64,000 nt of DNA from a virus, in the IMG/VR virus record IMGVR_UViG_3300030447_000342. The stretch is one strand, 5' to 3'. How positions within the stretch are numbered: the stretch's first letter is position 1; each line of letters opens with the position of its first letter. The notes beneath the pieces were generated by a model, which was given only the letters and a program-made list of their open reading frames with translations, was not told where the DNA came from and searched no databases. The position numbers were made by a program, and so were the translations under genes. Shown one piece after another: positions 18,909 through 53,087 of the stretch.

Positions 18909-18954
18909 TCATCAAGCGCCTTTCAAAGCCTTGTGGCACAAGTGATTCAAGCCA

Positions 18955-24250: not shown

Positions 24251-24349
24251 TCTGGTTTACGAGCATAGTGCCGAATTCTTACTTTTGCCTTTGGCGAAAA
24301 GCTGCTGAAGGAAATATGTATAACAGCAAATCTACAAAGCGGTTGGTCG

Positions 24350-35501: not shown

Positions 35502-36991
35502 CAGAACGTTCCTCCGTGAAGATTCTTACGAACCTCATCCAGCGTGAACTGCTTTTCAAACTTTCCATCTCTAAACACGGTGCGCAGTTCATTGCTGTCC
35601 TGTGCTTCAGCCCAAGTAAGACCATCAACGTAATCGTAGCCGTCACCAGTTTTGACTACGCGGCAGCAACCACGCTGAGACTTCTTAAAATGTCCTGTGT
35701 CTGTCTTGGGATTCTTGAAAATCATAATCGGTTTGCCGTCGGCATCTTCTGCATATGTCGCTTTAACTGCAATGCCGAATGTATCCCTCGTGTACGGATT
35801 GTACTGTTTGCTTCCATCGCTCTCGATTGTCTCTAAGCACTCCATTGAGAATGAACCGACACCGAGCGAAACATTATTGATTGCAAAGCCGTTTTTCTCC
35901 AAAAGAGAATAGATTTGCTCACAGCGCTGCGGAGTAATGCTGTCTCCGTAAATTGCCTTGACGTGCGGATTCAGCACCTTGTACCCCTTGCTATTTACTG
36001 TGCCGCCAAAGATGTCCCACAGACGATATACGGTCTCAGTGATTACACTAACAGGGTCACCGCTGTCGCCGCGAATTGAGATGAAGCCATCGTGATTTAG
36101 GATGTCATCTTTGAGCTGAGGGAGGACTTTTTCAACAAGATTCCAATAGTCATAGCTGTCGCTAACCATTGAGAAACTTTGATGCGGATACACCTCACAA
36201 AGAAGTCGTCGAATCTGTGTCACCTCATCACCGTCAACAGCAAAGTTGGAACACATTACGCTGTGTTCTGTTGAGAGCGCACCATATGCGACAGGTTCCT
36301 TGCTACAATCACAGTTGTAATTATGCTCAAGCCACAAAATCGCAGGCACTGTCGCCGTATTCAAGAAGCTCAGGCAGAAAGCCGCTGCGCTCTTTGTTGC
36401 ACTTTCAACGCTCTCTTGCCCGCGCATAGAAAAATCGCCAAGGAGTCTCGCACGAACCACACTGTCATCGCAAGTGCGTTCTGCATACTCATTGACGATT
36501 TTACGATATCTGTACCCAACCTCAGCGGAGACTTGCGTATGCCACATTGTGCAAGAGAGCATCGTCTCGATGGTGTTGACCAGCCATACGAAGTTAGGGT
36601 GTGTATTTGAGATTTCAATTTGTGGGACTTTGATATTGGTTCTCGTTCCTTCGGGAACAGCACGAATCTGTAACGGAAGATAGCCGAGGTCGTGCAATTC
36701 ACGAAGCCGTTTCTCTCCAACGCCTTTTGTTCCGATTGTTGCCCCAAGAACTCTGGTGTACTCCTTGAGTACACTATCAAACGGGACATTAAAGAAGTGG
36801 TCGTTGAATGCCTCAATAAGATATTCCTGAATGAATGCCTGAAGTCCAAACAGTGTAACCTTATCGGTATCACCGAGGCGACTCATGCGTGGCGTGTAGT
36901 AGGAGACCATTTTGGTCAAGCCCTTCGGATACTGTTCAGCGTGACAAGTCTTATAGAAGTCCAGACACAGGAGCGGATTATATGTAATCAT
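35501..36991 (-). CDS. Nicotinamide phosphoribosyltransferase family protein (NadV/NAMPT-like; a Namat-like ADPR-PP-dependent enzyme cannot be excluded)
   Basis: 496 aa. The LDFYKTCH N-terminal motif and overall architecture match the NAMPT family. Co-localised with the Prs-like gene. Confidence 0.8.
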   Translation of the reverse strand: MITYNPLLCLDFYKTCHAEQYPKGLTKMVSYYTPRMSRLGDTDKVTLFGLQAFIQEYLIEAFNDHFFNVPFDSVLKEYTRVLGATIGTKGVGEKRLRELHDLGYLPLQIRAVPEGTRTNIKVPQIEISNTHPNFVWLVNTIETMLSCTMWHTQVSAEVGYRYRKIVNEYAERTCDDSVVRARLLGDFSMRGQESVESATKSAAAFCLSFLNTATVPAILWLEHNYNCDCSKEPVAYGALSTEHSVMCSNFAVDGDEVTQIRRLLCEVYPHQSFSMVSDSYDYWNLVEKVLPQLKDDILNHDGFISIRGDSGDPVSVITETVYRLWDIFGGTVNSKGYKVLNPHVKAIYGDSITPQRCEQIYSLLEKNGFAINNVSLGVGSFSMECLETIESDGSKQYNPYTRDTFGIAVKATYAEDADGKPIMIFKNPKTDTGHFKKSQRGCCRVVKTGDGYDYVDGLTWAEAQDSNELRTVFRDGKFEKQFTLDEVRKNLHGGTF

Positions 36992-37212
36992 TCAGCTTTT
37001 CCTCTTTTCTTTAGTTTTTCACCATATTTCGCAAAAAACACAGCAAACGCGAACGGTGCTGCAACAATCCAGAAAACACCTACCATAATATACCCGTCTT
37101 CGAACCCATTATATTTGTTATATGGTTCTACGATAACGTACAAGCGGCAAAGTGCGAATGTTACAATCGCACCAATGCAGAGGTACAGGAGCACTAAAAG
37201 GACTGTCATCAT
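36988..37212 (-). CDS. Hypothetical small membrane protein
   Basis: 74 aa, two TM helices. Confidence 0.35.
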   Translation of the reverse strand: MMTVLLVLLYLCIGAIVTFALCRLYVIVEPYNKYNGFEDGYIMVGVFWIVAAPFAFAVFFAKYGEKLKKRGKAE

Positions 37213-38414
37213 TCCTCTTCACCCGCCTTAAAGTTATAAATCGGCTTGATGATGGCATCAATAGTCACTGTTGGTTCGACATTGTTTACGATATCATCCA
37301 TACCTTTGTATGCCATCGGGCATTCATCGAGCGTGCTTCTTCCAACAGATGTAGTGTAGATACCCTCCATCTGCTTCTTGAACTCAGAAACTGTGAATGT
37401 CTCTTTCGCCGCGCTGCGGCTCATCAAACGCCCAGCTCCATGCGGGGCAGAGAAGTTCCAGTCTTCATTTCCTTTGCCGGTACACAGCAAACTACCGTCT
37501 CTCATGTTGATAGGAATCAGCAGCCGCTCACCAGCTTGTGCAGAGACCGAGCCCTTGCGAAGAATCATATTCTCTACATCGATGTAGTTGTGAATAGTTG
37601 TAAACTGCTCTTCGACATGGAAGCCCATACCCTTAACAATGGTGTCCATCATTGCTTGGCGGTTAAGTTCAGCAAAACGTTGAGCAATTTTCATGTCATG
37701 GATATACTGCTCAAACAATTCTCCCTCAACGTATGCAAGCTGCTTTGGAACTCCCGGCTTCTTCGCCTTCATGCCTTTAAGAACAGATTGGATTTCTTTT
37801 TGTCTTCCAGCCGCTTTTAACTCGTTGACAACCTCCTCGATTTCTTCCTTGGAATACGAGGTTAACGCCTTGAACGCAGCTTCCTGATAGAAGTTAGCAA
37901 TCTCCAGACCAAGGTGTCTACTACCGGAATGCACCACAATATAGATGTGTCCATCATCATCTTTGTTGGCTTCGATGAAATGATTCCCTCCACCAAGCGT
38001 ACCGATGCTTTTATATGCGCGGTCTACATTGACCATCTTTACACAGCACAGTTCCGACAGGTCGATGCTACTTGCATATCTATGAGCTTCTGTGCGAATC
38101 TCGAAACCGGACGGAACTCCTGCACGAATAACTTTGTCCAGCTTCTGCGGTTCGATATGCGTTTCTTTGATACGGATAGTTTCCATGCCGCATCCAATGT
38201 CAACGCCGACAAGGTTCGGGCAAATCTTATCCTTGATGGTCATCGTGGTTCCGATTGTACAACCAGCCCCAGCATGAATGTCTGGCATCATACGGACTTT
38301 GCTTCCCTCGATGTACGGTTGATTCAAAAGATTGATAACCTGAGAGATAGACTCATTATCGACCACGTCGGTAAACACCTTTGCGACGCCAAACTTACCC
38401 TGTAACTCAAGCAT
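37209..38414 (-). CDS. rtcB: RtcB RNA 3'-phosphate/5'-OH ligase
   Basis: MMPDIHAGAGCTIGTT..NLVGVDIGCGM and the HGAGR motif HGAGRLMSR. Confidence 0.85.
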   Translation of the reverse strand: MLELQGKFGVAKVFTDVVDNESISQVINLLNQPYIEGSKVRMMPDIHAGAGCTIGTTMTIKDKICPNLVGVDIGCGMETIRIKETHIEPQKLDKVIRAGVPSGFEIRTEAHRYASSIDLSELCCVKMVNVDRAYKSIGTLGGGNHFIEANKDDDGHIYIVVHSGSRHLGLEIANFYQEAAFKALTSYSKEEIEEVVNELKAAGRQKEIQSVLKGMKAKKPGVPKQLAYVEGELFEQYIHDMKIAQRFAELNRQAMMDTIVKGMGFHVEEQFTTIHNYIDVENMILRKGSVSAQAGERLLIPINMRDGSLLCTGKGNEDWNFSAPHGAGRLMSRSAAKETFTVSEFKKQMEGIYTTSVGRSTLDECPMAYKGMDDIVNNVEPTVTIDAIIKPIYNFKAGEEE

Positions 38415-38433: not shown

Positions 38434-39222
38434 TTAGATTAGCGAAATCTTTTCGCTGTGTCCGCGATAGATACTGTCTGTGGTAAACACATGGCGGATT
38501 AAGCCATCCGTGAGAACTGTTCCGCTGTGAATTGTGTTTTCACAATGGGTCACATACAAATACACTTCATTCGCGCCAGCCTCTTTTAGTGCCTTAGCTG
38601 TAAAAGTGAATGTGCCACCGCGAGAACAAATATCATCGACAATCAGCACATTTCTATCGGCAACCTTTTCTGGGCTCGTCAGTTCCAGCCGTTCAATTTT
38701 CCCGGTGCGCCAGTCTCTATGCTTGATGCAGAACACATACTCTCTACCAGCTTGCGATGAATATCGTTTTGCTGCTCCCTCATCAGGATAGCACAACAAC
38801 ACATTTTTGTCATCCAACTTGTCCAGAGCTTTCTGGATGTGCGGCTGCGCGTCATATACCTTGACTCTGTCAAGCAATGCTGCTGATACATTCGAGTGAG
38901 GGTCATCGACTAACACGTCGTCAAAATCCAGCGTGTTGATAAACTCCGCAAACCATTTTAGCGTAAACACTTCGTCCGCATTTTTTACTCTATCCATTCT
39001 GGCATTTGGAATGTATGGGAGCAGCAAGCGGAGGCGAACGTCCCGGTCATGGTCGCGGATATGATTTACCAGATACCATAGAAGGATGCACTCCTCATCG
39101 CCGTCATACTTCCATGTGATATTGAAGATGCGAGTCATTGAGCCAAACGGATTATACCTGAAAGAGGTTGTACCATCGGGGAACTTTGTAAACTCGACCT
39201 GCTTGTCGTTGACAAGAATCAT
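38434..39222 (-). CDS. Ribose-phosphate pyrophosphokinase homolog (Prs-like; candidate ADP-ribose pyrophosphokinase Adps)
   Basis: Type I PRTase/PRPP-binding loop NVLIVDDICSRGGT. Prs-like N-domain. Confidence 0.75.
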   Translation of the reverse strand: MILVNDKQVEFTKFPDGTTSFRYNPFGSMTRIFNITWKYDGDEECILLWYLVNHIRDHDRDVRLRLLLPYIPNARMDRVKNADEVFTLKWFAEFINTLDFDDVLVDDPHSNVSAALLDRVKVYDAQPHIQKALDKLDDKNVLLCYPDEGAAKRYSSQAGREYVFCIKHRDWRTGKIERLELTSPEKVADRNVLIVDDICSRGGTFTFTAKALKEAGANEVYLYVTHCENTIHSGTVLTDGLIRHVFTTDSIYRGHSEKISLI

Positions 39223-39779
39223 GCCGTGACCCCCTCGTTCTCGATGTTAATCTGGCACATTTTCATTGCCGACAGTGCAGTCTTGTGACTCTCTGGTGTC
39301 ACGCCAGCGCAGCAGGAAGCATCGACCGTAATCTTAACTTCCGGCATAAACGCCTTGAGCAGCAAGGCATTTGAGATAACACAGATATCGGTACAAAGAC
39401 CGACAAGGACAATTTCTTCTATGCCATCACCAAACGCAACTTCTGGATATAGGCGACCAGCAAGTGCTAATGAACCAAACGTTTTCTTCTCGAAACCATT
39501 CATCTGGTCATCCGCTGGATGCTTGCTCTGAATTGCTGCTTTAACTGAGCTATGAATCTGCCAGCCATTACTTGCAGATATACAGTGTTTTACCGGCAAC
39601 AATCTTCCTTCTTGCGTTTCGAGGTAATCATCAGAATGGGTGTCTTGTGTCCACAAAACTTCCCCATCAAACTCTTCGATTTTCTTGACGACCTTCGGCA
39701 CAATAGCCTGTGCCTCTGGTGTCCCGAGCGTACCATCAATAAAGTCGTTCTGCATATCAACGACAACAAGAACCTTCAT
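39219..39779 (-). CDS. Isochorismatase-family cysteine hydrolase (PncA-like nicotinamidase candidate)
   Basis: VVDMQNDF, the conserved Lys FEKKTFGS, and the catalytic Cys in GLCTDICV. Confidence 0.7.
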   Translation of the reverse strand: MKVLVVVDMQNDFIDGTLGTPEAQAIVPKVVKKIEEFDGEVLWTQDTHSDDYLETQEGRLLPVKHCISASNGWQIHSSVKAAIQSKHPADDQMNGFEKKTFGSLALAGRLYPEVAFGDGIEEIVLVGLCTDICVISNALLLKAFMPEVKITVDASCCAGVTPESHKTALSAMKMCQINIENEGVTA

Positions 39780-41278: not shown

Positions 41279-41355
41279 TGGTCTGGGTGAGAGGACTCGA
41301 ACCCCCGACATCTTGCTCCCAAAGCAAGCGCACTACCATCTGTGCTACACCCAGA
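41279..41355 (-). tRNA. tRNA-Pro (anticodon UGG), CCA encoded
   Basis: Cloverleaf parsed by hand. Anticodon loop TTTGGGA closed by CTTGC/GCAAG. T-loop TTCGAGT. 3' CCA. Confidence 0.8.
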
Positions 41356-41383
41356 TATAATGGTTTTGTTTCCGAACACACAC

Positions 41384-41444
41384 GCACTACTGATGGGTTC
41401 GAACCATCCTCACCATAAGCATCGCCATCAATGCTTAGTAGTGC
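41384..41444 (-). ncRNA. Aberrant 61-nt tRNA-like element: acceptor stem and T-arm present, only one internal arm, no CCA
   Basis: GCACTAC..AGCA[ttgatggcga]TGCT..GATGG TTCGAAC CCATC..GTAGTGC. Too short for D-arm plus anticodon arm. Confidence 0.3.
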
Positions 41445-41482
41445 GTGCCGGGGCAGAAAGGAAAACGGATATGTCAGTCCGT

Positions 41483-41558
41483 TGGAGCTGGTGACAGGGC
41501 TCGAACCCGCAACCCAGTGAGTACAAATCACTTGCGCTACCAATTACGCTACACCAGC
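41483..41558 (-). tRNA. tRNA-Thr (anticodon UGU), CCA encoded
   Basis: Anticodon loop TTTGTAC closed by AGTGA/TCACT. Acceptor GCTGGTG/CACCAGC. 3' CCA. Confidence 0.8.
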
Positions 41559-41602
41559 GTGCACCCTCGTCTTTCCGAGGTGTCAGCTTTTAGCTAAAAG
41601 GC

Positions 41603-41671
41603 TGCTGATGACTGGACTTGAACCAGCGGCTCGCACTTCCGGTGCTGCTCTACCAACTGAGCTACATCAGC
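41603..41671 (-). ncRNA. Aberrant tRNA-like element with a truncated anticodon arm (4-bp stem, 5-nt loop), 1-nt variable region, no CCA
   Basis: Normal acceptor GCTGATG/CATCAGC, D-arm GCTC AGTTGGTA GAGC and T-arm GCTGG TTCAAGT CCAGT. The anticodon region GCAC cggaa GTGC cannot form a 7-nt loop. Confidence 0.3.
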
Positions 41672-41785
41672 ATAGATACGCCCTGCGCCCGTAGGACTCC
41701 GTGTGCACCCGGCTGTGTCTCTTACAGAGATAACAGTTGAGTGATGAACTAACCGTACAAACGTAAGCATGACCAACAGAGCAGA

Positions 41786-41861
41786 TGGAGCTGGAACTCG
41801 GAGTCGAACCGAGAACCCACGCTGTACGAAAGCGTTACTCTACCAGTTGAGCTATTCCAGC
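41786..41861 (-). tRNA. tRNA-Thr (anticodon CGU), CCA encoded
   Basis: ACGCT TTCGTAC AGCGT anticodon arm. T-arm CTCGG TTCGACT CCGAG. 3' TCCA. Confidence 0.8.
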
Positions 41862-42020
41862 ATAGATGCCATCCTGAAACTATGGCGATGTCATTAACAC
41901 CACCAATACAAACTCACTATGATGGCAGTTTTGATAGCGTGAAAGGAGAATCATGGATAAATCATCGTGGCACAAGGGATTGCAGGGATAGAAAACAAGC
42001 TCTAATGCCGAAGATGATTT

Positions 42021-42095
42021 TGGCAGGGGCAGTAGGATTTGAACCTACGAATAACGGAGTCAAAGTCCGCTGTGTTACCGCTTCACCATACCCCT
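42021..42095 (-). tRNA. tRNA-Gln (anticodon UUG), CCA encoded
   Basis: GCGGA CTTTGAC TCCGT anticodon arm. D-loop AAGCGGTAA. Acceptor AGGGGTA/TGCCCCT. Confidence 0.75.
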
Positions 42096-42213
42096 GTATC
42101 TGCAGGCTCATGCAGCGGCGTCCCGCCAAACCAACCTGTAACCGACTTCCAGAGCAGGCTCTGACGTGTCGTAAAGGCATTTCCTTTAACGCATAATTTA
42201 ATGGTTTCTTACT

Positions 42214-42290
42214 TGGAGCGGCGTACCAGACTCGAACTGGCACCACCGGTTTGGAAGACCGGAGTGCTAACCGTTGAACACCAACACCGC
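42214..42290 (-). tRNA. tRNA-Gly (anticodon UCC), CCA encoded
   Basis: CCGGT CTTCCAA ACCGG anticodon arm. 3' GCTCCA. Confidence 0.8.
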
Positions 42291-42476
42291 ATGGTCGGCT
42301 TCTCGCTTAGATTGTCACACGCTACCGGCAACTACGCTCCGAAAAGTCGTAGCCCCTATTCCGTCAGGTCAAACCGGTCTTGACGCATCAAGACAAGCGC
42401 AGTTTTCAGCAAGCATTTTCATTCTTTGTGAGGTAAGCCGATAATCTCTCACATCAGTTGGGAGCTACCCAACAAC

Positions 42477-42552
42477 TGGCAGGGGTGAATGGATTCGAAC
42501 CACCATCTGACGGTTTTGGAGACCGCTATGTTAGCCATTGCACCACACCCCT
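42477..42552 (-). tRNA. tRNA-Trp (anticodon CCA), CCA encoded
   Basis: GCGGT CTCCAAA ACCGT anticodon arm. Acceptor AGGGGTG/CACCCCT. Confidence 0.8.
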
Positions 42553-42642
42553 TGGCGGAGTGGACAGGACTTGAACCTGCACATCCTTTCGGATTACTCA
42601 CGGTTTAGCAAACCGCTGCCTTACCGTTAGGCTTACCACTCC
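42553..42642 (-). tRNA. tRNA-Ser (anticodon GCU), long variable arm, CCA encoded
   Basis: GCGGT TTGCTAA ACCGT anticodon arm. Long extra arm. Directly abuts tRNA-Trp. Its 5' end overlaps the stop region of the downstream CDS by ~10 nt. Confidence 0.8.
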
Positions 42643-43314
42643 ATCGGGATTACTTTATTATACAGAGCAATAAACTGCTCATTGACCTGCTTGTCCACAT
42701 GATAATGTCCAAAGAACCACCGCTTGAATGTGAGGTCGGAACAAACCCTATCTAAAAAGCTGACCATCGGGTCGTTCTCGTACCAGCTTGCGAGCAGAGT
42801 CTGAACACTCCTTGGCGCACAATGTGTAATTACATAGTCAACTCGCCAATGATTTTGTTCGAGCGCTGCAATCGCTCGTTCCATTTCTTCTCTGGACGGC
42901 ATTTCCTCTTTCCACCATGAGATATGTTCCACGCGATACTCTTTATCAACAGAGCGAGCACCGCCCATGCAGAAGATTTTCTTTCCATCAATCGTGAGCA
43001 CCTGCCCTCTGTCCAGATGATAGATGTCAGGAGCGATTTCACGCACCTTTCCGCCAAATTTGTCAATCAGCGGGAACTGGTAGAGCATATCAAAGTTCTC
43101 ATGGTTGCCATCAATCCAAAGTGTCGTGAAGTTTTTCGCTGTCAGCCAGTCTTGCCACCACATCTCTCGATGCGAACCGTCCCAGCAGAGTCCAAAATCG
43201 CCACATATGATTACGAAATCATTCTTCGTCAATTCCTTTTGTTGTGGGAACTTTGTTGTATTAAGCTTGGCAATATCAATGTTTGCGTGTGTATCTCCAG
43301 TGACATAAATCATG
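42633..43314 (-). CDS. Calcineurin-like metallophosphoesterase
   Basis: MIYVTGDTHAN, ICGDFG and GNHEN metal-binding motifs. AAAGGAA RBS before the Met at 43314. Confidence 0.65.
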
Positions 43315-43579
43315 CTCAGTTCCTTTCTCATCTGCAGTCCATATGTATATTCTGTTCTGGTCTCTTCGTTTATCTCCTGTAGCGACGGGATTTAGATGAG
43401 CTGAAAGCGAGTTCAAATCCCAAGCGGCGATGATGAAATCATTGGGAGACAATGGGTTCGACAGTCGCTCATCGGATGGAGATGACAAGACATCCCGAAT
43501 AGTTTTAATGAGCTGTACAGCGAGCTTAGGCGCCTTCGCAGCAGGCTGCGGGCGGGGAATTGTGCTGTCCAGCAAAGTG

Positions 43580-43630
43580 ATACTTCAGCCTTTGGCGTGA
43601 AGCACATTCCTTACGAAATGTTATTCACTG
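43580..43630 (-). repeat. Copy A of the conserved two-hairpin RNA-like motif, ~300 nt downstream of the RT gene
   Basis: Minus strand: CAGTGAATAA-[ACATTTC GTAA GGAATGT]-GC-[TTCAC-G-CC AAA GGC TGAAG]. A GNRA-tetraloop hairpin followed by a GCC/GGC-capped hairpin. Confidence 0.6.
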
Positions 43631-43735
43631 CAAATGATAATTTGATTATCCTGTAATCTACATTGAGGTAGCTCCCTACGAGGAGGAGCTCCGGCACCCA
43701 GTGACTGGCGTGCGACATCTTTTGGTCGTCTCGTT

Positions 43736-43762
43736 GAATCCATTGTGGCACAATGGATTCAA
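43736..43762. other. Perfect 12-bp hairpin with a 3-nt loop, inside the structured non-coding region between motif copies A and B
   Basis: GAATCCATTGTG gca CACAATGGATTC. Confidence 0.5.
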
Positions 43763-43861
43763 GTGATTCGGGCTGCTCACCGGTGGTTCGCAGCCTCGAA
43801 GGATGACTTGAGTCTGCAGGTGAATGCGCCTCCGGGGAGGTTTTCCTCCCTATCAAGTTGT

Positions 43862-43912
43862 TACTTATGCCTTTGGCGATAAGCATTGCTTTCGCAATTA
43901 TGCATTACAGGA
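43862..43912 (-). repeat. Copy B of the two-hairpin motif, 20 nt downstream of the RT stop codon
   Basis: Minus strand: CTGTAAT-GCATA-[ATTGC GAAA GCAAT]-GC-[TTATC-G-CC AAA GGC ATAAG]-TAACAA. Confidence 0.6.
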
Positions 43913-43932
43913 TTGCGGGTTATTTATAGACG

Positions 43933-45069
43933 TTACCGCAGGTCGTCCTTCATCATGCGGATTACATCCACATTCATTTTCTTGTTGATGTAAGCTACAA
44001 TTGCGTCGATGGTCTCTTTTTCGACCATACGATAATAGCTATGCAGACCATACATTACCTGTACATCATTCCGCTCCCAAGCGACACCATTGTTCTTATC
44101 TGTGATGTAATTGTACAGCATTGACTGGAACTGCTTTTTCTTTTTATGACCGACCGTAATCTCGTTGTCCTTATTCAGCATAACGCCAAGATTCCAGTTG
44201 CGCCCCGCTGATGAACCATACCGAGTCTTGCTTGCATTGATTGTGAATGGGGCACCAAAACTGCTCAATGTACTTACTACCAGCTCTTCAACAGAGCGAA
44301 CATCAAAATCATACTTGGATGAAATAATGAAGTCATCCGCATATCTGGTATAAATGAAGCTCTGTTTTTCAAAATTACGGAGCGTATTCGACAGTTTGAA
44401 ATCAACCGGAATCATCATTACGTTTGTGATGAGCGGTGAAATTGGGGTGCCCTGCGGTAGCCCACCATTTAAGAACGCTAACGACATAGCTGTCCGCAAT
44501 GCTGCCTCGCCCTGTGGCTCTTTTACAATCTCACTAAAAGGAAAAACCATCGAGAACATTGAGATGGCATAATCCAATGTTGTGCTGCCAAAAAAGTCGT
44601 GCAGGTCAAGCTTTGCGAACCATTTGCTGCTGTTCTTCTGGTGACGCTTAACCGCATCGACTGTACTCCGCTTCTTTACATAAGCAAACGCGGCAGTATG
44701 ATAGAGTGCATGGAAATCATCCTCGAAAATCGTTTTGAGTCTTCTCAAGGCGTCCATCAGCTCTGCCTTTGGCGCATCGATTCTACGAAGACCACCAGAT
44801 TTCTTTGGGATGTAAAAGGTCTCATACAACTCGCTCCGTTCCTTTGCACGAAGCTCTGCTGTATCGTTATTAAATCGCACGAGTTTTCCGATTAAAGCTT
44901 CAACACCAATCTTGCTGGAAAAATGTTCACTGACATTTTCGACCTCGTATGTTCTTGTGTTTGCAATATTGGCATTGACAACCGGAGGTGTCTGATAGTT
45001 TTGAAACAGGTACTCTTCCAGTGTCATCTGATGATAAATCGGTGACTGCCTAACAGTGATATAGACCAT
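43933..45069 (-). CDS. Reverse transcriptase. Retron/group-II-like RT motifs, no maturase or endonuclease domains, and no DGR-type SQ motif.
   Basis: FYIPKKSGGLRRIDAP (RT motifs 1-2). AYVKKRSTVDAVKRH (region 2a, NAxxH-like). LDLHDFFGS (motif A). LPQGTPISPLITN (motif B', QGxxxSP). YTRYADDFIISS (motif C, YADD). FTINASKTRYG and NLGVML (motifs 6-7). AAGGAGG RBS. Confidence 0.8.
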   Translation of the reverse strand: MVYITVRQSPIYHQMTLEEYLFQNYQTPPVVNANIANTRTYEVENVSEHFSSKIGVEALIGKLVRFNNDTAELRAKERSELYETFYIPKKSGGLRRIDAPKAELMDALRRLKTIFEDDFHALYHTAAFAYVKKRSTVDAVKRHQKNSSKWFAKLDLHDFFGSTTLDYAISMFSMVFPFSEIVKEPQGEAALRTAMSLAFLNGGLPQGTPISPLITNVMMIPVDFKLSNTLRNFEKQSFIYTRYADDFIISSKYDFDVRSVEELVVSTLSSFGAPFTINASKTRYGSSAGRNWNLGVMLNKDNEITVGHKKKKQFQSMLYNYITDKNNGVAWERNDVQVMYGLHSYYRMVEKETIDAIVAYINKKMNVDVIRMMKDDLR

Positions 45070-45095
45070 TTCTTCCCCTCCTTGTCCAATAACTA

Positions 45096-45104
45096 ACTGT
45101 AACC
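45096..45104. repeat. Short inverted repeat ACTGTAACC, just upstream of the RT start, complementary to the CGTTACAGT segment of motif copy C (a1/a2-like)
   Basis: rc(ACTGTAACC) = GGTTACAGT versus CCGTTACAGT at 45429-45438: 8 of 9 nt match. Confidence 0.3.
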
Positions 45105-45388
45105 TACATATGTCTGCTGCTTCCCAGAATTCCTAAGTCTGAAGACTACGTCGTCCCTGTGGGAGGTGGTGCGAGCTCTTGCAAGATGCGAGATTTTTTT
45201 TCTTTGATTTCATTGCGACTGAAAGCATGAGTCTGATGTTAGCACATTTCGTCCTTGTATCGAAGATTTGGCGAAAAGTGCTTGACATTTGGTTTGCTTT
45301 ATGGCGTGATGCTGCCGACCCGTGGCAGCCGGTTTGCTTTCAGGGTTCCACCGCGTCATCCTCCGGGGGTCATCCTCCCGACAATTTG

Positions 45389-45439
45389 TTACTTTAGCCT
45401 TTGGCGTAAAGCTCTCTTACGAGAAAATCCGTTACAGTC
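45389..45439 (-). repeat. Copy C of the two-hairpin motif, ~320 nt upstream of the RT start
   Basis: Minus strand: CTGTAAC-GGATT-[TTCTC GTAA GAGA]-GC-[TTTAC-G-CC AAA GGC TAAAG]-TAACAA. Confidence 0.6.
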
Positions 45440-45441
45440 TG

Positions 45442-45462
45442 TGGCGCATTAAGGCTGCGCCA
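45442..45462. other. Perfect 7-bp hairpin whose loop contains the stop codon of the upstream gene, immediately 5' of motif copy C
   Basis: TGGCGCA ttaaggc TGCGCCA. The TAA stop (rc of tta at 45449-45451) lies in the loop. Confidence 0.5.
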
Positions 45463-46255
45463 TACCTAATAATTCAAACAGTTCTTCGTCCGTAAAGACA
45501 TTTTGAGTTGTGAATGGCTTGATGAAAAACACGCCGTCCTCTCGTTGTTCGACAATCGTGTCAGGGCTCAACGTGCACACCGGTCTTACCCCGGAACAGC
45601 TTGATGCTGTCAGCCTGTTTAACACACCAGAGCGATTCGAAATCGCCGCTCTTTCGGTCTCAACATCGTCTAACAGCCAGAAGCTCATAAATCCACGGTC
45701 TGAATCAAGCCCTGCATAACGAGCTTTCAGGTCGAACAAGTCGGCTGTCGGATTCGGACGAATGCCTTTTCTTTTGAATAAGTCAAAGCGCCGCCCATCT
45801 TGGAGGCTAAAAATGTCTGCAATTGATGGTAGGCGAATCAACGAAGACACTCGGTTCTCTCCGACCACATACTCTTTCCTAACCAAAGAAGCAATCTCGT
45901 GGTCTTCAAAGAAATACAGAAACCCGTAATGGTCTTCATAGCGAGCATAACTATACCTCACAAAGGCACCGGGCGAAGAATCATTATCGTGCATTGCGTG
46001 ATACCACATCATCTGGTCACTGTTCAAGAACGAAAACAGATTTGACACTGGATACTTCGCATTATTAACACGCCTATAATGCCCAGTCTCTTCCGCCGCA
46101 TCGAAGCACAGGTAGTCGATAGCTTTTTCTGTGATAAAATCACAGTTTGGATTGCCTTTCAGCCAAACAATCGGGTACGGGTTGTCTTTGTCCACACCGT
46201 ACTTGCCCATCACGAGTTGTGCGCCAACCTTGAGAGCACCAACGGTCGTGTCCAT
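45449..46255 (-). CDS. Hypothetical protein (268 aa) immediately upstream of the RT-associated non-coding region
   Basis: ORF with a good start context. No recognised motif. Not a detectable DGR variable protein (no VR/TR pair found). Confidence 0.45.
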   Translation of the reverse strand: MDTTVGALKVGAQLVMGKYGVDKDNPYPIVWLKGNPNCDFITEKAIDYLCFDAAEETGHYRRVNNAKYPVSNLFSFLNSDQMMWYHAMHDNDSSPGAFVRYSYARYEDHYGFLYFFEDHEIASLVRKEYVVGENRVSSLIRLPSIADIFSLQDGRRFDLFKRKGIRPNPTADLFDLKARYAGLDSDRGFMSFWLLDDVETERAAISNRSGVLNRLTASSCSGVRPVCTLSPDTIVEQREDGVFFIKPFTTQNVFTDEELFELLGMAQP

Positions 46256-46288
46256 ACCTTACCCCCCTCCCTTCGTTCTTTTTGAAAA

Positions 46289-46966
46289 TTAAAACGCATC
46301 CAGCAGCGGCTGGAATGCGTCACAAATAATCAGCTTATTCAGCCCCTTGCCCCTGATGTACTTGACGAAGTTGCTCACACCCAGAGCACAAATCACTCTG
46401 ACCGTAGTGACAACACCAAGCGTAATGCCGCAAGCTGAGACTGGAGTTTCTTCCGCCGCCTCATCGTGTGTAAAATTCATGGAGTTGAGGAGGTCTTTCT
46501 TCATCTTGTAGTCAGACCAATCAGCAGCATAGTGCTGACCAGCCTCCAGCAGAGTTCTGAAATCAAACATCGCCTTTACATACGGATTGTCGAAGTGTTT
46601 CTCAACAATCTTTTTTCTCAGCTCGATGTTATCAACGCACAAGAACACATAGCCGGATAACTGCTGCCCGTTCCACCCATCCTTGTAAAGCTTCAGGTCA
46701 TCCTTAACATCAGGATTGATGTCGAAAAGAATATCCGCCAATGCCTCGACCTTAGAGCGCCCAATGTCCTGCTGACGGAAAATCTGATTTGCCAGATTGT
46801 GCGGACTTACTGTGTCCATATCCCACAGTGCGATGTTCGTGAGTCCTAAGCGAACCAGTAGCTCCGCAACCGTCGCGCCGACAGAACCACACCCGACGAT
46901 ATGGATTCTACAATCAACCTTCTCGGGCTGGAAATATTCATAGCTCTTTGACAGGTCAATAGCCAT
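46289..46966 (-). CDS. E1-like ThiF/MoeB-family adenylyltransferase
   Basis: Rossmann motif RIHIVGCGSVGATVAELLVRLG. LWDMDTVSPHNLANQ (D.D.V..SNLNRQ-like). Confidence 0.7.
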   Translation of the reverse strand: MAIDLSKSYEYFQPEKVDCRIHIVGCGSVGATVAELLVRLGLTNIALWDMDTVSPHNLANQIFRQQDIGRSKVEALADILFDINPDVKDDLKLYKDGWNGQQLSGYVFLCVDNIELRKKIVEKHFDNPYVKAMFDFRTLLEAGQHYAADWSDYKMKKDLLNSMNFTHDEAAEETPVSACGITLGVVTTVRVICALGVSNFVKYIRGKGLNKLIICDAFQPLLDAF

Positions 46967-46967
46967 A

Positions 46968-47900
46968 TTACTTACCTCCTAAGTATGCATAAGGGTCGTA
47001 GTCATCTTCGTCTTCCCAGCCATGCATTGATTCTTGGCAGGCATTCTGTCCATGCCAACCAGCGCCAATTCTGGTTCTGGGTTTCTCTCCCTCGTTCTTT
47101 TTACCAGATGACTTATCCTTGTTTTCTTCTTTCTTACTGTCCTTCTTGTCGTCGGACTTACCTGCAAGTGGATTGTACGGAGTACCAGCCGGAGCTCCCC
47201 TGTATCCCTGATTGTAGTAACCGCCGTATCCGCTCTGACCGCCATACGCATAGGACTTTGACTTCACCATATCCTTCGCGTTTTTGATAAACTCATCAAG
47301 TCCTTCATTCTGACCGATAATCTTGACCGTGATATCTTTATCCTCAAACATCACGTTCTTCTTGAGGTCATAGATTTTATTTGTGCTTGCAAATGACTTG
47401 TTCCAAATCATAAAGATGTAGAAGTCATTATCGCCAAGCATCCCGAGGATTTCCTCTTGATGATTGAGGTCAACAGAGGATGGAGACGTACCCATATTTA
47501 CATGAGAATGTCCCTGCATATAGATGTGGTTGAAACGCTCATCTTCGATGTTTTCCTGAATCCACAGAGCATATTTCTCGGTGTCCATCTCAACCGTTGC
47601 GCCGGTTACCTCCTGCGGATAGACAACGATGTCATCGATGACATACTCGTCAAGCGATTCATCTTCAGTTCGACGTGCGACACCATGCCATGCGACCTCT
47701 TTATCGAACTCTTTGATAAGCATAGTCATCTTTGCCCACGCCTCTGCGCTGAAGTAAACTACTGCCTTTCTGTCACCACATGAGAACGCTTTGGTAAAAG
47801 AAAGCTTTCCATCCGAGAGCTTTGTAAGTGACAAAGCCTTCTCAAAATCTTGACGGCACTCATCAATGAGTTCCTGCGTCAACTTAATTGGTCTGCTCAT
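46968..47900 (-). CDS. JAB/MPN (JAMM) metalloprotease-domain protein with a low-complexity G/Y/K-rich C-terminus ending ..YLGGK
   Basis: JAMM motif HIYMQGHSHVNMGTSPSSVDLNHQ (H-x-H-x7-S-x2-D) with an upstream Glu in AWHGVARRTEDE. Confidence 0.65.
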   Translation of the reverse strand: MSRPIKLTQELIDECRQDFEKALSLTKLSDGKLSFTKAFSCGDRKAVVYFSAEAWAKMTMLIKEFDKEVAWHGVARRTEDESLDEYVIDDIVVYPQEVTGATVEMDTEKYALWIQENIEDERFNHIYMQGHSHVNMGTSPSSVDLNHQEEILGMLGDNDFYIFMIWNKSFASTNKIYDLKKNVMFEDKDITVKIIGQNEGLDEFIKNAKDMVKSKSYAYGGQSGYGGYYNQGYRGAPAGTPYNPLAGKSDDKKDSKKEENKDKSSGKKNEGEKPRTRIGAGWHGQNACQESMHGWEDEDDYDPYAYLGGK

Positions 47901-49377
47901 TTTGCGCCTCCTCCGTCTGCTCATCCTTTGCCTCCTGCTCATCAAGCCATCTAATTGCTTCGTTCGGCTTTACAACGCGACCATCTGGCAACTCAATACA
48001 ACGACTGACCGTGTTATTTGACCACATGGTTCTCATAAACTCGCCCATAACTGCACTGTCGCCGAAGTTCAGACTCTTACAGGACGCAATACACTGCTCA
48101 AGTGCACCGATATAATTTCGTTTTCTCAGCAGTTCATTGATAGTCCTGCTGTAATTGCCCATGCAATGATAACGGTCAATATGCGTATTAGGCATATAAC
48201 CATCAAATGTGTAATCAGAAAAATCACCAGTCTGCGCAGAAACACTACCATTCAGGTCGAATCTATATGCTGCGCAAAAGCGGATTCTAAGCCGAGGATT
48301 TTCACTTACGAAAATCTCCTGCATCAGCTTCTGCATTTTCTCTGAAGCTGCCGCATTGTGACCGTTGCCACCATCCGGTCGATACACATAACTGCTTCTA
48401 TTGTTGATTGCTCGCTCAGCCATATCTCTGTCAAAGTATTCAAGGTAGTCTTTAACCGAGAAATACATATCCGTATTGCTAACATGAGACAGGACAAGTC
48501 TGTTGTTGCAGAGGAAATAATCCATGATTTCAGAGTCTCCACCGCCCTCTGCAATTCTTTGCTCAAGTCCCAACAATCTGATGCACTTGTCATTGCGGCG
48601 CGACAGATACGCGCCGATAGAATCATTGAGTCGCTGAATCTCCATGTCAATAGATTGGATTTCATTGCGAACAGTATCACATTCGATGCGCTCATATCTG
48701 GTTTCAAAATCACCCAGTAACTGACGAATCCGCGCTGTTCTGAAATCATATCCCTCGGCAAGCTTTGCAATGCACTTCTCATAGTTTGCTGAATTTGTTT
48801 CTCGCAAAGATTGCATCAATGCAAGCTCATCTTCTGTCAAACCATCATCCTGATTCAGATACCACGGCATGAATGCAAGAATAGATACCTGAAGATAATG
48901 CATTTTCTTAACATCAAGATTGTCAACGAAGACAATCACCGACTTCTTGTCAGGGTTGATATAACAATCAACATTGAATGACTTCCGATAAAACGCTTTG
49001 ACCTTATCAAGACGGTGATACTCTGGGTAGATAGAAGTAAACTTGTCCTCCACAATCTGCATACAAGCCAGATTGCTATTTTGGTCAGCATTGAAGCTAT
49101 GAACTATGAGCGCACCGCTGGCATTCATTTGATAACTGCTACAGATAGCACTAACCGCACGTTCTGCTGGAACGTTACGGATAGTGTTCCCATCATAATT
49201 GGTCGAACCGAAAGTCAGGTAAACACTTTCGTCCTCTTTGATTCGAGGTGCAACCAGTGCACGAAGCGTTGAAAGGAACGAACAGTCATTGCCAAAATAG
49301 CTTCCGGTAATGTTCTGAAAAAAGCTATTAGCCGCCTCTGACGTAAACGGTGTCGATGTAATGCTTGTCTTGAACAC
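47884..49377 (-). CDS. Hypothetical protein (497 aa), first gene of the JAB / E1 / 268-aa / RT string
   Basis: Long ORF, no motif recognised. Overlaps the JAB gene start. Confidence 0.5.
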   Translation of the reverse strand: MFKTSITSTPFTSEAANSFFQNITGSYFGNDCSFLSTLRALVAPRIKEDESVYLTFGSTNYDGNTIRNVPAERAVSAICSSYQMNASGALIVHSFNADQNSNLACMQIVEDKFTSIYPEYHRLDKVKAFYRKSFNVDCYINPDKKSVIVFVDNLDVKKMHYLQVSILAFMPWYLNQDDGLTEDELALMQSLRETNSANYEKCIAKLAEGYDFRTARIRQLLGDFETRYERIECDTVRNEIQSIDMEIQRLNDSIGAYLSRRNDKCIRLLGLEQRIAEGGGDSEIMDYFLCNNRLVLSHVSNTDMYFSVKDYLEYFDRDMAERAINNRSSYVYRPDGGNGHNAAASEKMQKLMQEIFVSENPRLRIRFCAAYRFDLNGSVSAQTGDFSDYTFDGYMPNTHIDRYHCMGNYSRTINELLRKRNYIGALEQCIASCKSLNFGDSAVMGEFMRTMWSNNTVSRCIELPDGRVVKPNEAIRWLDEQEAKDEQTEEAQNEQTN

Positions 49378-49403
49378 AGAAACACCTCAATTCATTTTTA
49401 TCT

Positions 49404-49488
49404 TGGTGGGGAATATCGGATTTGAACCGATACGGCATACGCCAACAGAACTTAAATCTGTTGTGTCTTCCAATTCCACCAATTCCCC
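49404..49488 (-). tRNA. tRNA-Leu (anticodon UAA), long variable arm, CCA encoded
   Basis: ACAGA TTTAAGT TCTGT anticodon arm. Extra arm GGCGTATGCCGTATC. Confidence 0.8.
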
Positions 49489-49530
49489 ATGAAAAGAGCC
49501 GCCCCATGAAGGGCGGCTCTAATCTAAAAC

Positions 49531-49758
49531 TTAGGCGTTGTCCGCCTTAACGACATTCAGCAGGAAGCACTTCTCGGTAATGCCGAACTGCTGGAAGGTC
49601 TTATCGAGGTCGCCGGGGTTCAGAGAAGAACCATCGAGGTGCATGACACCACGAGTGTAATCAACGCCGTTTGCCTCAAGGCAGGAGCGCAGGGTGGTAT
49701 TCTCATCGATGATGACAGCCTCACGCTTAACATTGTTGCCAACAGTAACCTTAATCAT
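49531..49758 (-). CDS. Hypothetical small protein
   Basis: 75-aa ORF between tRNA genes. Confidence 0.35.
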   Translation of the reverse strand: MIKVTVGNNVKREAVIIDENTTLRSCLEANGVDYTRGVMHLDGSSLNPGDLDKTFQQFGITEKCFLLNVVKADNA

Positions 49759-51092: not shown

Positions 51093-51182
51093 TGGCGGGG
51101 AGTGTAGGATTCGAACCCACGGACGGCTTTCACCGCCAACGGTTTTCAAGACCGCCACCATAAGCCACTCGGTCAACTCCCC
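51093..51182 (-). tRNA. tRNA-Ser (anticodon UGA), long variable arm, CCA encoded
   Basis: GCGGT CTTGAAA ACCGT anticodon arm. Acceptor GGGGAGT/ACTCCCC. Confidence 0.8.
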
Positions 51183-51199
51183 AAATAAAAAGAGACGGG

Positions 51200-51862
51200 T
51201 CATTCGCCCGTCTCAGTCTCAGTTTCATCTTCTTCATCTTCCGGCTCATCCACGCCATCGATATCATATTCATCATACGGAAACTCTGTAAAGACTTCAC
51301 AGCCGCTTTCTTTTTCCGTTATAATCATCGGTCGATAGATATGGAAACCGTAATCTTCTGAAAGCTCTTTCAAAAATCCATCAAGGATTTCATCGACAGC
51401 TTCATAGCCATACGCTTCTAAGATATTTGTTCCGTCGTTGTCACCCTCCTGCAGCGCGATTGCGAGGAAATCTGCCATAGCCAAACGGAGTTCATCATCT
51501 CGCTCATACATAGCATCCTCTATGTCCATCCATGTTTCATCGCTTTCTTCTTTGCCGCCATCTGGATTATCTCCCGGAACATACTTGTTGTCTGTAATCA
51601 CAACAGGAAAGAGATAGCGTGTGTAGAATTTCTTCGACACCGCTGTACAGTCCTCCTCACTCACGCAAGGTTCTTTGTACTCAATTTTTTCGTTGCCCTT
51701 TGCAACAGCCAAAACTGGGAGGTCGTTTTCCTCGGTAAGATACACGGCATACTCCGTGTCGGTGTTCTCAGCAATGAGAACCATTTCTTTGTTCAAACGT
51801 TTTCTGCTTGCTTGGAAAAACCCCCATACTGCATCAGCGGGGATATGAATATGAACTCCCAT
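51200..51862 (-). CDS. Hypothetical protein with a highly acidic C-terminus
   Basis: Start MGVHIHIP with an AAGGAGG RBS. The track's longer ORF reads through the tRNA-Lys gene and is rejected. Confidence 0.45.
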   Translation of the reverse strand: MGVHIHIPADAVWGFFQASRKRLNKEMVLIAENTDTEYAVYLTEENDLPVLAVAKGNEKIEYKEPCVSEEDCTAVSKKFYTRYLFPVVITDNKYVPGDNPDGGKEESDETWMDIEDAMYERDDELRLAMADFLAIALQEGDNDGTNILEAYGYEAVDEILDGFLKELSEDYGFHIYRPMIITEKESGCEVFTEFPYDEYDIDGVDEPEDEEDETETETGE

Positions 51863-51888
51863 AAGGAACCTCCTTATATATTTGACTT

Positions 51889-51964
51889 TGGTACTCCCGA
51901 CGAGGCTCGAACTCGTGACCCCAGCATTAAAAGTGCCGTGCTCTACCAACTGAGCTACGGAAGT
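51889..51964 (-). tRNA. tRNA-Lys (anticodon UUU), CCA encoded
   Basis: CGGCA CTTTTAA TGCTG anticodon arm. T-arm CACGA GTTCGAG CCTCG. Confidence 0.8.
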
Positions 51965-52135
51965 ATATTGACCGGCTATTACGGTATGCCCAGAAAGGTG
52001 GACACGCTTGAGTTCCACAAACAGTTTTGCCCGCAAAAGATGGAGGTGAATATTTGATGGAGGTGTTTATCTTAATGCAGGTACGAAGAAAGGAACTTAC
52101 AAATGAACGAAGGACACGCGCATGGCAAAACTGTC

Positions 52136-52219
52136 TGGTGCAGGATAAGAGACTTGAACTCTTACGCCGGAGGCAGCGGGACTTGAATCCGCCGTGTCTG
52201 CCAATTCCACCAATCCTGC
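52136..52219 (-). tRNA. tRNA-Leu (anticodon CAA), type II with a long variable arm, CCA encoded; A:C mismatch closing the anticodon stem
   Basis: GCGG(A) TTCAAGT (C)CCGC anticodon arm. Extra arm CTGCCTCCGGCG. T-arm AAGAG TTCAAGT CTCTT. Confidence 0.65.
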
Positions 52220-52226
52220 ATATTTC

Positions 52227-52427
52227 TTATATCCAACCAGCTAATACTGCGATTGTTGTCACACTCAAAACGGTTAGTACAATGTTGTCATACACTATTC
52301 GGTTGTGGAGATTTTTGCTTGCTCGCTCAACCTTTCTTTGGAGTCGCTCAATTTCTTCGTTTTTGCTTTCGCGCTCAAATTTGTATTTGCACCACGCTTC
52401 GCCTGATATGAAGTCACCACGCTCCAT
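52227..52427 (-). CDS. Hypothetical small protein with a C-terminal TM helix
   Basis: 66-aa ORF. Confidence 0.3.
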   Translation of the reverse strand: MERGDFISGEAWCKYKFERESKNEEIERLQRKVERASKNLHNRIVYDNIVLTVLSVTTIAVLAGWI

Positions 52428-52455
52428 GTTTATACCTCCTTACCAAAGTCATGTT

Positions 52456-52782
52456 TTATCGAATGCCGTCTACCCACAACTCTAACGTGCGACGATTTGC
52501 GTACTGTTTACAGAGTTCTTCGATGGATACACCATGTGCCTTTGCATCCGTTTTCATTGCCGTAAACTGGTCTCTGTATTTTTTGACCATCTTTTCAACG
52601 GCAAGAAAATGCTCTTTGTCTTTAGGATAGAAGGCAATATCATCAAGGCAGACACTGCTTATATCTCCCGTGTGGCAAATTACTTTCCAGCAATTTTTGC
52701 ATGGCGCATCATCTATGCTCACCATATGATTGATGCAGTCACTGCAGTGGACAACCACTCCATTTACCTTAATTGGTTTCAT
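52456..52782 (-). CDS. Hypothetical Cys-rich protein
   Basis: 108 aa; CSDCINH and CKNCWKVICH cysteine cluster. Confidence 0.4.
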   Translation of the reverse strand: MKPIKVNGVVVHCSDCINHMVSIDDAPCKNCWKVICHTGDISSVCLDDIAFYPKDKEHFLAVEKMVKKYRDQFTAMKTDAKAHGVSIEELCKQYANRRTLELWVDGIR

Positions 52783-52804
52783 TGGTTGCTCCTCCTTTTA
52801 TGAG

Positions 52805-52880
52805 GTGGTGGAGATAGCCGGACTCGAACCGGCGACCCTCTGCTTGCAAAGCAGATGCTCTCCCAGCTGAGCTATACCCC
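52805..52880 (-). tRNA. tRNA-Ala (anticodon UGC) with the G3:U70 identity pair, CCA encoded
   Basis: GGGGGTA TA GCTC AGCTGGGA GAGC; TCTGC TTTGCAA GCAGA; acceptor 3' TATCTCC A CCA. Near-identical architecture to bacterial tRNA-Ala. Confidence 0.85.
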
Positions 52881-53007
52881 CATACTTTACGGCATAAAAC
52901 CCAAGTCAACTCCGCCGTTTGATGTTCCCCACACTAATACCTCAATGCTTCGGATTGCATCAATAAGCCTTGCGCTCCGATACCCAAGGAATGAACATCG
53001 TTCCCAC

Positions 53008-53087
53008 TGGCGCCGAGAGCCGGTCTTGAACCGCCATTATAGCCTGATGTTGACAGCGCTATGTTTTACCAATTAAACTACCTCGGC
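53008..53087 (-). ncRNA. Aberrant tRNA-like element: normal acceptor, D- and T-arms, but an extended 8-bp bulged anticodon stem with loop UCAACAU; CCA encoded
   Basis: GCCGAGG TA GTTT AATTGGTA AAAC; ATAGC-g-CTG [tcaacat] CAG-GCTAT; T-arm GGCGG TTCAAGA CCGGC with one G:G mismatch; GCCA end. Confidence 0.3.

Follow-up and report, generated by a model that had tools for sequence, protein, structure and literature searches.

We analyzed a 64,000-nucleotide (nt) stretch of viral DNA (IMG/VR record IMGVR_UViG_3300030447_000342), referred to throughout as the window, which carries on its minus strand a reverse transcriptase (RT) gene at 43933-45069 and, around this gene, repeated copies of a two-hairpin motif. 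A previous reading of the letters without database searches (the sequence-only reading) had placed three copies of the motif on the minus strand, and both covariance model R1 (matches at 43643-43569, 43920-43850 and 45447-45378) and direct reading of the sequence confirmed them there. We named these RT-proximal copies A, B and C, respectively. Copy C lies 320 nt upstream of the RT gene, copy B follows its stop codon by 20 nt and copy A lies a further 282 nt beyond, in keeping with the spacing first described. The core of the motif, GCTTNNCGCCAAAGGCNNAAGTA, occurs four times in the window against 0.03 occurrences expected, a number reached by none of 100 shuffled sequences. The fourth core is found at 24302-24280 (minus strand), 19 kb from the RT, inside a covariance-model match at 24336-24268 (minus strand). 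When the covariance model of the motif, which forms the 5' domain of the units described below, was run on the window with its filters off, it returned exactly four copies (E about 1e-10 to 6e-15) and nothing further above noise. The claim of exactly three copies, all bracketing the RT, thus gives way to three proximal copies and a degenerate fourth, copy D, at a distance. Extending the search to the rest of the genome and to related phages, as had been proposed, yielded about 165 further copies elsewhere in addition to copy D. The flanks CUGUAA and UAACAA, described as common to the copies, are replaced in copy A by AGUGAAUAACAU and UAUCAC, and the descriptions of the two hairpins stand once their labels, which were interchanged, are exchanged.

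The RT gene encodes a protein of 378 amino acids that contains the YADD motif and matches the Pfam family RVT_1 (9.9e-20). All 25 PADLOC matches listed for this protein were retron RT models, led by RT_II-A (6.6e-46) and including, among the matches listed, RT_I-A, RT_XIII, RT_III-A and others. Its nearest relatives of solved structure are the RTs of retrons Ec83, Ec78 and Ec67 (PDB). Judged by its sequence, the enzyme is a member of the retron or retron-like clade.

Relatives of the locus are common. An exact scan of IMG/VR for the core retrieved 79 loci on about 45 viral contigs of 5-133 kb, and many of these loci repeat the spacing of about 281 and 1528 nt. Analysis by tblastn revealed that the core-bearing IMG/VR contigs hold RT relatives that are 63-100% identical. 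Species-representative genomes, scanned in turn, added 16 further loci, with RT identities of 59-99%, in metagenome-assembled genomes. Most of these bear the labels Clostridia, Oscillospiraceae or Acutalibacteraceae, a hint at the host range. In metagenomes the RT family is very abundant, a single 90%-identity cluster comprising 1532 sequences, and the source names of its members offer nothing beyond "hypothetical protein". A nucleotide search of GenBank phages with the locus gave no match, and the protein search returned only one RT, 41% identical, in an unannotated fecal phage record. In one related locus on a contig of a metagenome-assembled genome (L094, 3001-4359) the RT relative aligns in two pieces (residues 1-97 and 91-377) with about 200 nt between them, which suggests an insertion or frameshift in that RT gene.

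Hairpins of the 5' domain and their linkage to the RT

The 5' domain consists of two short hairpins, P1 and P2. Pairing within them was measured on 133 model matches (45 distinct) from related phage contigs, and compared with the pairing obtained when the 3' partners were slid out of register. Of the cells in the alignment, 92% were paired, against 32-47% with slid partners, and the covariation score was 0.50, against 0.05-0.09. A second set of 32 matches, all adjoining RTs of 41-75% identity, was 93% paired, and double changes were seen in 13 of 13 pairs. Covariation between the hairpin arms, originally noticed in three copies, therefore holds on 133 and 32 further copies in relatives. The proposal that compensatory changes point to an RT-linked structure, either a functional RNA or one bound by protein, is likewise strengthened by the roughly 165 additional copies.

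The two hairpins differ in what they conserve. P1 has a stem of 4-7 bp of essentially free sequence and a loop of 3-17 nt. The GNRA tetraloop, singled out before as a conserved feature, turned out to be confined to the lineage of the window, and relatives have UUUUCG, AACG, UUCC, AUAA or larger loops. P2 reads CUUNN-C-GCC-AAA-GGC-NNAAG in the lineage of the window and is nearly invariant within a lineage; in relatives its apex is CGC-UGUUA-GCG, CG-UUGUCAA-CA, CGCC-UAA-GGU or others. Copies of P2 are more alike within than between genomes (3.15 versus 6.5 edits; 0 of 2000 permutations), so that P2 evolves in concert inside genomes, the pattern expected from recognition by one cognate protein. 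G-U pairs in P1, in P2 and in the helix that closes each unit (see below) occur on the RT-coding strand only, so that the structure is one of RNA.

The linkage of these elements to the RT is fixed. The model was run on 17 loci with RT relatives, of identity as low as 41%, and each of them had one or more RT-strand matches, some of these weak. Every unit beside an RT is on the RT strand, there is one unit upstream and one to three downstream of the RT, and the first always ends 20-50 nt before the RT start. The syntenic positions of the units are the same across lineages of 60-100% RT identity; unit B is missing from loci L021, L013 and L041. At most of the RT-relative loci a unit sits directly upstream of the RT even though the neighboring genes differ or are rearranged, as in locus L090. 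This linkage bears on the view that the units are small structured RNAs of the phage, for instance sponges or scaffolds, that work independently of the RT and owe their position to conserved synteny only. The phage does encode other orphan structured RNAs (RAGATH-4, -16 and -36), unit D is far from the RT and a unit in locus L034 lies apart from it, and the centres of the units evolve fast, as in some decoy RNAs. However, the RT-strand matches at all 17 loci, the retention of the upstream unit among changed neighbors and the concerted evolution of P2 within genomes all speak for dependence on the RT, and we consider an RT-independent role quite improbable.

Two elements in relatives lie apart from the usual positions. 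The L034 unit (10450-10763, minus strand) is a full unit with the G and the closing helix, on a stretch separate from the 63%-identical RT of the same contig, and is preceded by an SPFH/band-7-like gene (identified by eye from its translation) and a small membrane-protein gene. In L080, whose RT is the most distant (41% identical), a second two-hairpin element at 5110-5200 was seen by eye and was unscored by the model; it is located downstream of the RT at a distance of about 900 nt, past two small genes.

Architecture of the units

When roughly 270-350 nt from each copy were folded, a helix joining the extreme 5' and 3' ends formed in all four cases. The motif is therefore only the 5' part of a far longer structured unit, rather than the self-contained module of about 50 nt that had been supposed. 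Its 5' strand carries a conserved G in the consensus yUGyAAy-G-NAU. The 10 nt before this G (arm a2) have a complement of 9-10 of 10 bp (arm a1) 266-348 nt downstream in every A, B and C unit of the window and of the relatives, and a G always precedes this 3' complement, usually within AUGUAG. Both Gs are invariant in 30 distinct end-pairs (alignment A5) and are present in most units of distant loci; this test concerns the presence and position of the residues only, not branching. The closing helix shows double changes in 10 of 13 pairs, with a covariation score of 0.49 against at most 0.18 when slid. As the 3' arm was found by its complementarity, the percentage of paired positions is biased, but the invariant flanking G, the AUGUAG motif and the constant site just before the next gene or unit are independent of the choice of arm. 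Arm sequences change across unit types and lineages with pairing kept (TCCTGTAAT/ATTACAGGA, AACTGTAAC/GTTACAGTT and AATTGTAAC/GTTACAATT). The arms of unit A compensate each other in the same manner, being CATTTGCAGT/ACTGCAGATG in the window and CATTTGCAAT/ATTGCAAATG in relatives, and distant units beside RTs of 41-75% identity mostly keep the order a2-G...G-a1 with quite different arms (TTGCCGCCGT/ACGGCGGCAA, CGCTTATGAT/ATCATAAGCG and AGGTTGTAAC/GTTACAACCT).

Three complete units surround the RT gene, all on the minus strand. Unit C (45094-45440) is a retron-like non-coding RNA (ncRNA) directly upstream of the RT. It comprises a2 (45440-45431), the candidate branching G (45430), P1 (45424-45413), P2 (45411-45392), AUGUAG (45109-45104) with the opposing G at 45104, and a1 (45103-45094), and it ends 24 nt before the RT start codon. 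Its closing helix is present in both the minimum free energy (MFE) and the centroid folds, and among 18 RT-upstream regions the unit ends are invariant and the centre is variable. Unit B (43648-43913) begins 20 nt past the RT stop codon and contains a2 (43913-43904), the G (43903), P1 (43898-43885), P2 (43883-43864), the opposing G (43658) and a1 (43657-43648); it has a fold z-score of -7.5 and a closing helix of 10 of 10 bp (alignments A2 and A7). Within unit B an internal hairpin with perfect 14-nt arms, UUGAAUCCAUUGUG-C-CACAAUGGAUUCAA, lies at 43734-43762. Its core, CCAUUG..CAAUGG, recurs in units B and A of other lineages, and one U-A to C-G double change was seen in this hairpin, in L016. 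Unit A (43329-43636) follows B in tandem, with a2 (43636-43627), the G (43626), P1 (43621-43604), P2 (43602-43583), the opposing G (43339) and a1 (43338-43329), a closing helix and a fold z-score of -3.6, and ends just before the ribosome-binding site (RBS) of a metallophosphoesterase gene. The first in-frame ATG of the metallophosphoesterase open reading frame (ORF), at 43331, falls within a1 of unit A, and translation probably begins at the conserved ATG at 43313-43311 (minus strand; MIYVTGDTHA...), which has an RBS.

Unit D (about 24111-24336, minus strand) is the fourth copy, and is degenerate or specialized. Its 5' domain (24336-24268) has an identical P2 (24301-24282) and keeps a P1-like stem, and an A replaces the conserved G, as it does in every D copy of related phages. 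The closing helix is weak (CUGUUAU/GUUACAG, 24120-24114), and a systematic search with the 10 nt before the G position found no convincing a1 partner. An internal 12-bp hairpin (CGTAAACCAGAA/TTCTGGTTTACG) encloses a terminator-like GC stem that is followed by a run of T, and the unit lies immediately upstream of an HNH endonuclease gene (23386-23907, minus strand). Unit D has either decayed or become a variant whose role does not involve priming, and it shows P2 to be under selection on its own.

We also considered the motif as a promoter or terminator module, the generic explanation that the sequence-only reading had set against its own. This candidate was rejected, since such sites are no more frequent in 42500-49600 than chance predicts, and on the minus strand no site falls on the motif; in the same scan no promoter signal was found before the motif. 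Among the roles proposed at first, "RT template boundaries" came nearest: the motif looks like the 5' end of a retron-like template RNA whose matching 3' end is 266-348 nt downstream.

Between their conserved ends the units have long centres of about 200-290 nt that are rich in A and C (A 30%, C 29%, G 22%, U 19%); any complementary DNA (cDNA) made from them would therefore be rich in G and T. MFE folds of the units are multi-branched. In six phages with RTs at least 98.9% identical, the 5' domains are 98-100% and the flanking genes mostly 90-99% identical, whereas identity falls to 71-75% in the centres of units C (45150-45350) and B (43700-43800). Phages with 99%-identical RTs have one or the other of two unit C centre alleles, which are about 72% identical, and loci L009, L016, L036, L074 and L075 carry distinct centre alleles of unit C or B. 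This pattern looks like cassette replacement between conserved unit ends rather than gradual drift. The window holds no match to the unit centres outside the units themselves, and substitutions among variants are ordinary, dominated by transitions and found at all four bases. CCATTG-N5-CAATGG, the DNA form of the unit B hairpin core, is at chance level in the window outside the units, with a similar stretch at 18931-18951.

The units are non-coding: variable columns are spread equally over the three codon positions without 3-periodicity, and gap lengths in the centres are mostly not multiples of three. A stop-free sense frame is nevertheless present in 10 of 28 units against 3.3 expected, about threefold over shuffles. 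These frames differ between units, close variants have stops in every frame, and the excess is unexplained. An ORF like that of type VI retrons or of DRT2 was rejected on the lack of a conserved frame and of 3-periodicity and on indels that are not multiples of three. A DRT2-type ncRNA, the template of a never-ending ORF, was rejected as well, since no stop-free frame is conserved and the RT matches Drt2 weakly.

The variable centres next to an RT bring to mind a diversity-generating retroelement (DGR), in which the repeats would mark template and variable regions. Beyond the hypervariable sequence, this explanation could draw on a gene near the RT with a weak Hoc-like and DUF6273 match, possibly a surface protein. 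The centres, though, have no counterpart elsewhere in the window that could serve as a variable-region copy, the transition-dominated substitutions show no adenine bias, the best RT matches are to retron and not to DGR models, and the DUF6273 gene is absent from many related loci. A DGR is accordingly extremely improbable. One hint in its direction, short similarities between the 3' end of the gene upstream and unit C, was discarded because the differences are not specific to A.

The same comparison of ends and centres bears on the units as DNA-level repeats, either elements of the type of miniature inverted-repeat transposable elements with terminal inverted repeats or functionless leftovers of tandem duplication. 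Elements of about 300 bp with 10-bp terminal inverted repeats, in several copies per genome and with one copy adjoining an HNH endonuclease gene, have the outward form of such repeats. They are not scattered, however, but hold constant syntenic positions across 60-100% RT identity, and G-U pairs, in the two hairpins as in the closing helix, are tolerated on just one strand. The conservation of the 5' domains beside diverged centres reflects selection, not decay. We therefore regard DNA-level repeats of this kind as very improbable.

Units as candidate templates of a retron-type RT

Taken together, the motif looks like the conserved front end of three structured RNAs of about 300 nt, with a degenerate fourth, that resemble retron template RNAs. 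The explanation that we favor, and consider probable, is that the locus is a phage-borne, multi-template variant of a retron in which the motifs are the msr-like 5' domains of retron-type ncRNA units serving the RT. Each unit of about 270-350 nt would fold with its ends paired as an a2/a1 helix, and the junction would present the invariant G of the 5' strand opposite the invariant G of the 3' strand. The RT would bind each unit at P1 and P2, reverse transcription would be primed by the 2'-OH of the 5' G, and the 3' part of the unit would be copied from the A of AUGUA-G towards the 5' end. One enzyme would in this way yield several distinct branched RNA-DNA molecules, or G+T-rich multicopy single-stranded DNAs (msDNAs).

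Retron ncRNAs have been defined by hybridizing terminal inverted repeats, two opposing Gs, one to three short msr hairpins and a long msd stem-loop (Mestre et al. 2020; PMC7736814). The units described here have the first three of these features, with an msr-like part of two short, covariation-supported hairpins that falls within the range of one to three, and lack the fourth. With the retrons of the Ec83/Ec78/St85 clade (types I-A and II-A) they share the RT clade, a same-strand ncRNA directly upstream of the RT, pairing of the ends as a2/a1, a G that ends a2 and faces a G before a1, two short msr-type hairpins after the G, and a template part that varies between relatives. The order a2-G-hairpin-hairpin also parallels that of the Ec86 msr. 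Unlike those retrons, the present system has for its single RT three full units, of which two stand in tandem downstream, and a degenerate one; it is carried by a phage of about 60-130 kb beside replication, RNA-repair and tRNA genes; a centre of about 200-290 nt, A+C-rich and subject to allelic replacement, takes the place of the long msd hairpin; and where those retrons have a recognized effector, its conserved neighbors are an E1-like ThiF protein, a weakly JAB-like protein and a 497-residue protein.

Two other kinds of phage element invite comparison. Phage diversity-generating retroelements likewise combine an RT, an adjacent non-coding template RNA and local hypervariability, but here there is neither a template/variable pair nor adenine-specific mutagenesis, and the RT is of a different clade. 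The put antitermination RNAs of phage HK022 are, like the motif, two adjacent hairpins repeated across a phage genome; put sites follow promoters and act on RNA polymerase, whereas the motif always lies inside a helix-closed unit of about 300 nt, is tied to an RT and has no preceding promoter signal.

Several observations weigh against the interpretation of the units as templates. The formation of msDNA is here predicted from sequence. No Rfam family, whether msr, group II intron domains, ribozymes, Y RNA or any other, matches the units at gathering score in a search of the whole window, and at E<=10 the sole match in 43000-46300 was a chance snoRNA inside the RT gene. No canonical long msd stem-loop was found in the units; the A+C-rich centre, with more C than G, is unlike a stable hairpin, and RNAalifold retains just one short hairpin in it (CCAUUG..CAAUGG). 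Pairing between the two ends of the centre (24 nt following P2, 24 nt preceding the opposing G) is no stronger within the same unit (-8.4 kcal/mol) than across units (-7.9 kcal/mol). Since unit D retains P2 without the G, the role of P2 may be independent of priming. Among six flanking proteins tested with PADLOC, no known retron effector was found. The RT scores 175 bits with the NCBIfam model retron_St85_RT, below the cutoff of 235 bits, and is therefore an outlying member of the retron clade. Its NAxxH motif reads AVKRH (LDNAKIH of Ec83 corresponds to VDAVKRH), with the H kept and the N and A replaced, and VTG reads NLG (HVTGV of Ec83 corresponds to WNLGV), with the G kept and the V and T replaced. 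In favor of a retron type, the H of NAxxH and the G of VTG are the most conserved of these signature residues in retron RTs (PMC7736814).

Some of these points would suit a different explanation, in which the units are RNA elements, bound by the RT or by another protein, that regulate or process a long polycistronic transcript and are not templates; they could control translation of a downstream gene, for example, or be cleaved at the closing helices. The units are closely packed between genes, with the RBSs of the RT and of the phosphoesterase coming directly after unit ends, unit D has P2 without the G upstream of the HNH gene, and the canonical msd stem was not found. There is also a precedent in the type VI retron RNA, which combines a template with translational control (bioRxiv 10.1101/2025.10.22.683967). 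On the other side, invariant opposing Gs and AUGUAG flanking a covarying helix are features of retron priming for which a simple operator would have no need, and some units have no gene start just downstream (B, which is followed by A, and the L034 unit elsewhere in its genome). A purely regulatory role therefore appears unlikely. The type VI hybrid RNA (Retron-Vpa2) is the nearest non-canonical case, being an RNA that goes beyond an antitoxin msDNA and forms one transcript with a downstream coding sequence. The units differ from it in having no conserved ORF, in being multiple and in being phage-encoded, and no helix-turn-helix partner or small toxic protein was identified at the locus.

Returning to the units as templates, their wider meaning lies in number and in carrier. 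Retrons have been described as bacterial anti-phage systems composed of one RT, one ncRNA and one effector, and to our knowledge every retron described has a single template RNA. We found no report of a phage-encoded retron with its own ncRNAs or of a retron with several ncRNAs; our coverage of the literature was incomplete and a prior description is possible. If the units are templates, this would be the first multi-template retron known to us, and a case of a phage deploying retron chemistry. In either case, an abundant phage lineage has a retron-type RT and RNA architecture as a fixed component. The position of the locus among RNA-repair, tRNA and NAD-salvage genes, together with the swapping of centres between otherwise near-identical phages, hints at a role in phage-host conflict. 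More specifically, one RT with exchangeable cassettes, widespread in gut phages that infect Clostridia, might produce a set of G+T-rich msDNAs for counter-defence or superinfection exclusion, and not the antitoxin of a bacterial abortive infection system; we offer this as a tentative suggestion that is rather doubtful at present. Should the units be templates, testable questions would arise about the targets of their DNAs, and multiplexed retron editing could profit from a natural scaffold with several templates for one RT. The 5' domain together with the a2-G...G-a1 rule offers a route to annotate such RNAs in metagenomes, where Rfam models find none.

Gene neighborhood of the locus

The window encodes a DNA polymerase, primase, helicase, DNA ligase, RtcB, RNA ligase, a CCA-adding enzyme, NAMPT with Prs, and recombinases. 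Three minus-strand genes, encoding p497 (47884-49377), p325 (46968-47945) and a ThiF/E1-like protein (46289-46966), form a cluster that accompanies the RT in the window and in loci L080-L096, even where the RT is only 41% identical; in L090 the E1-like gene is displaced to the downstream side of the RT, still next to it. The ThiF-like protein matches E1-E2 models and p325 matches JAB weakly (0.0026); the metallophosphoesterase on the other side of the RT gives a weak match to the candidate system PDC-S10 (2.3e-05). The p497/p325/E1-like cluster could be a partner of the RT system or mere conserved synteny. Between the E1-like gene and unit C lies a gene at 45449-46255 (minus strand) with weak DUF6273 and Hoc-like head-decoration matches. 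It is found in some lineages only, and in many relatives unit C comes straight after the E1-like gene.

Other RNA features share the strand of the RT. Strong Rfam matches to orphan RNAs are present on the minus strand at 55751-55907 (RAGATH-36), 58189-58319 (RAGATH-4) and 58495-58566 (RAGATH-16); no twister or hammerhead ribozyme was detected in the window at gathering score. Thirteen tRNA genes form arrays on the RT strand (41282-42642, 49407-49488 and 51096-53087, minus strand), the first of which begins about 700 nt downstream of unit A. Further minus-strand genes make up an RNA-repair and NAD-salvage cluster (15331-16677, 29702-30787, 33017-34291, 35501-36991, 37209-38414, 38434-39222 and 39219-39779), whose products are a CCA-adding enzyme, RNA ligase, DNA ligase, NAMPT, RtcB, ribose-phosphate pyrophosphokinase and an isochorismatase-family protein. 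Taken as a group, these genes suggest functions in counter-defence in the vicinity of the RT locus. Three genes resemble recombinases or integrases, two of tyrosine type and one of serine type; they are found at 9895-10845 and 21483-22640 (minus strand) and at 60492-61319 (plus strand). The phage may accordingly be temperate, or some of its segments may be invertible or mobile.

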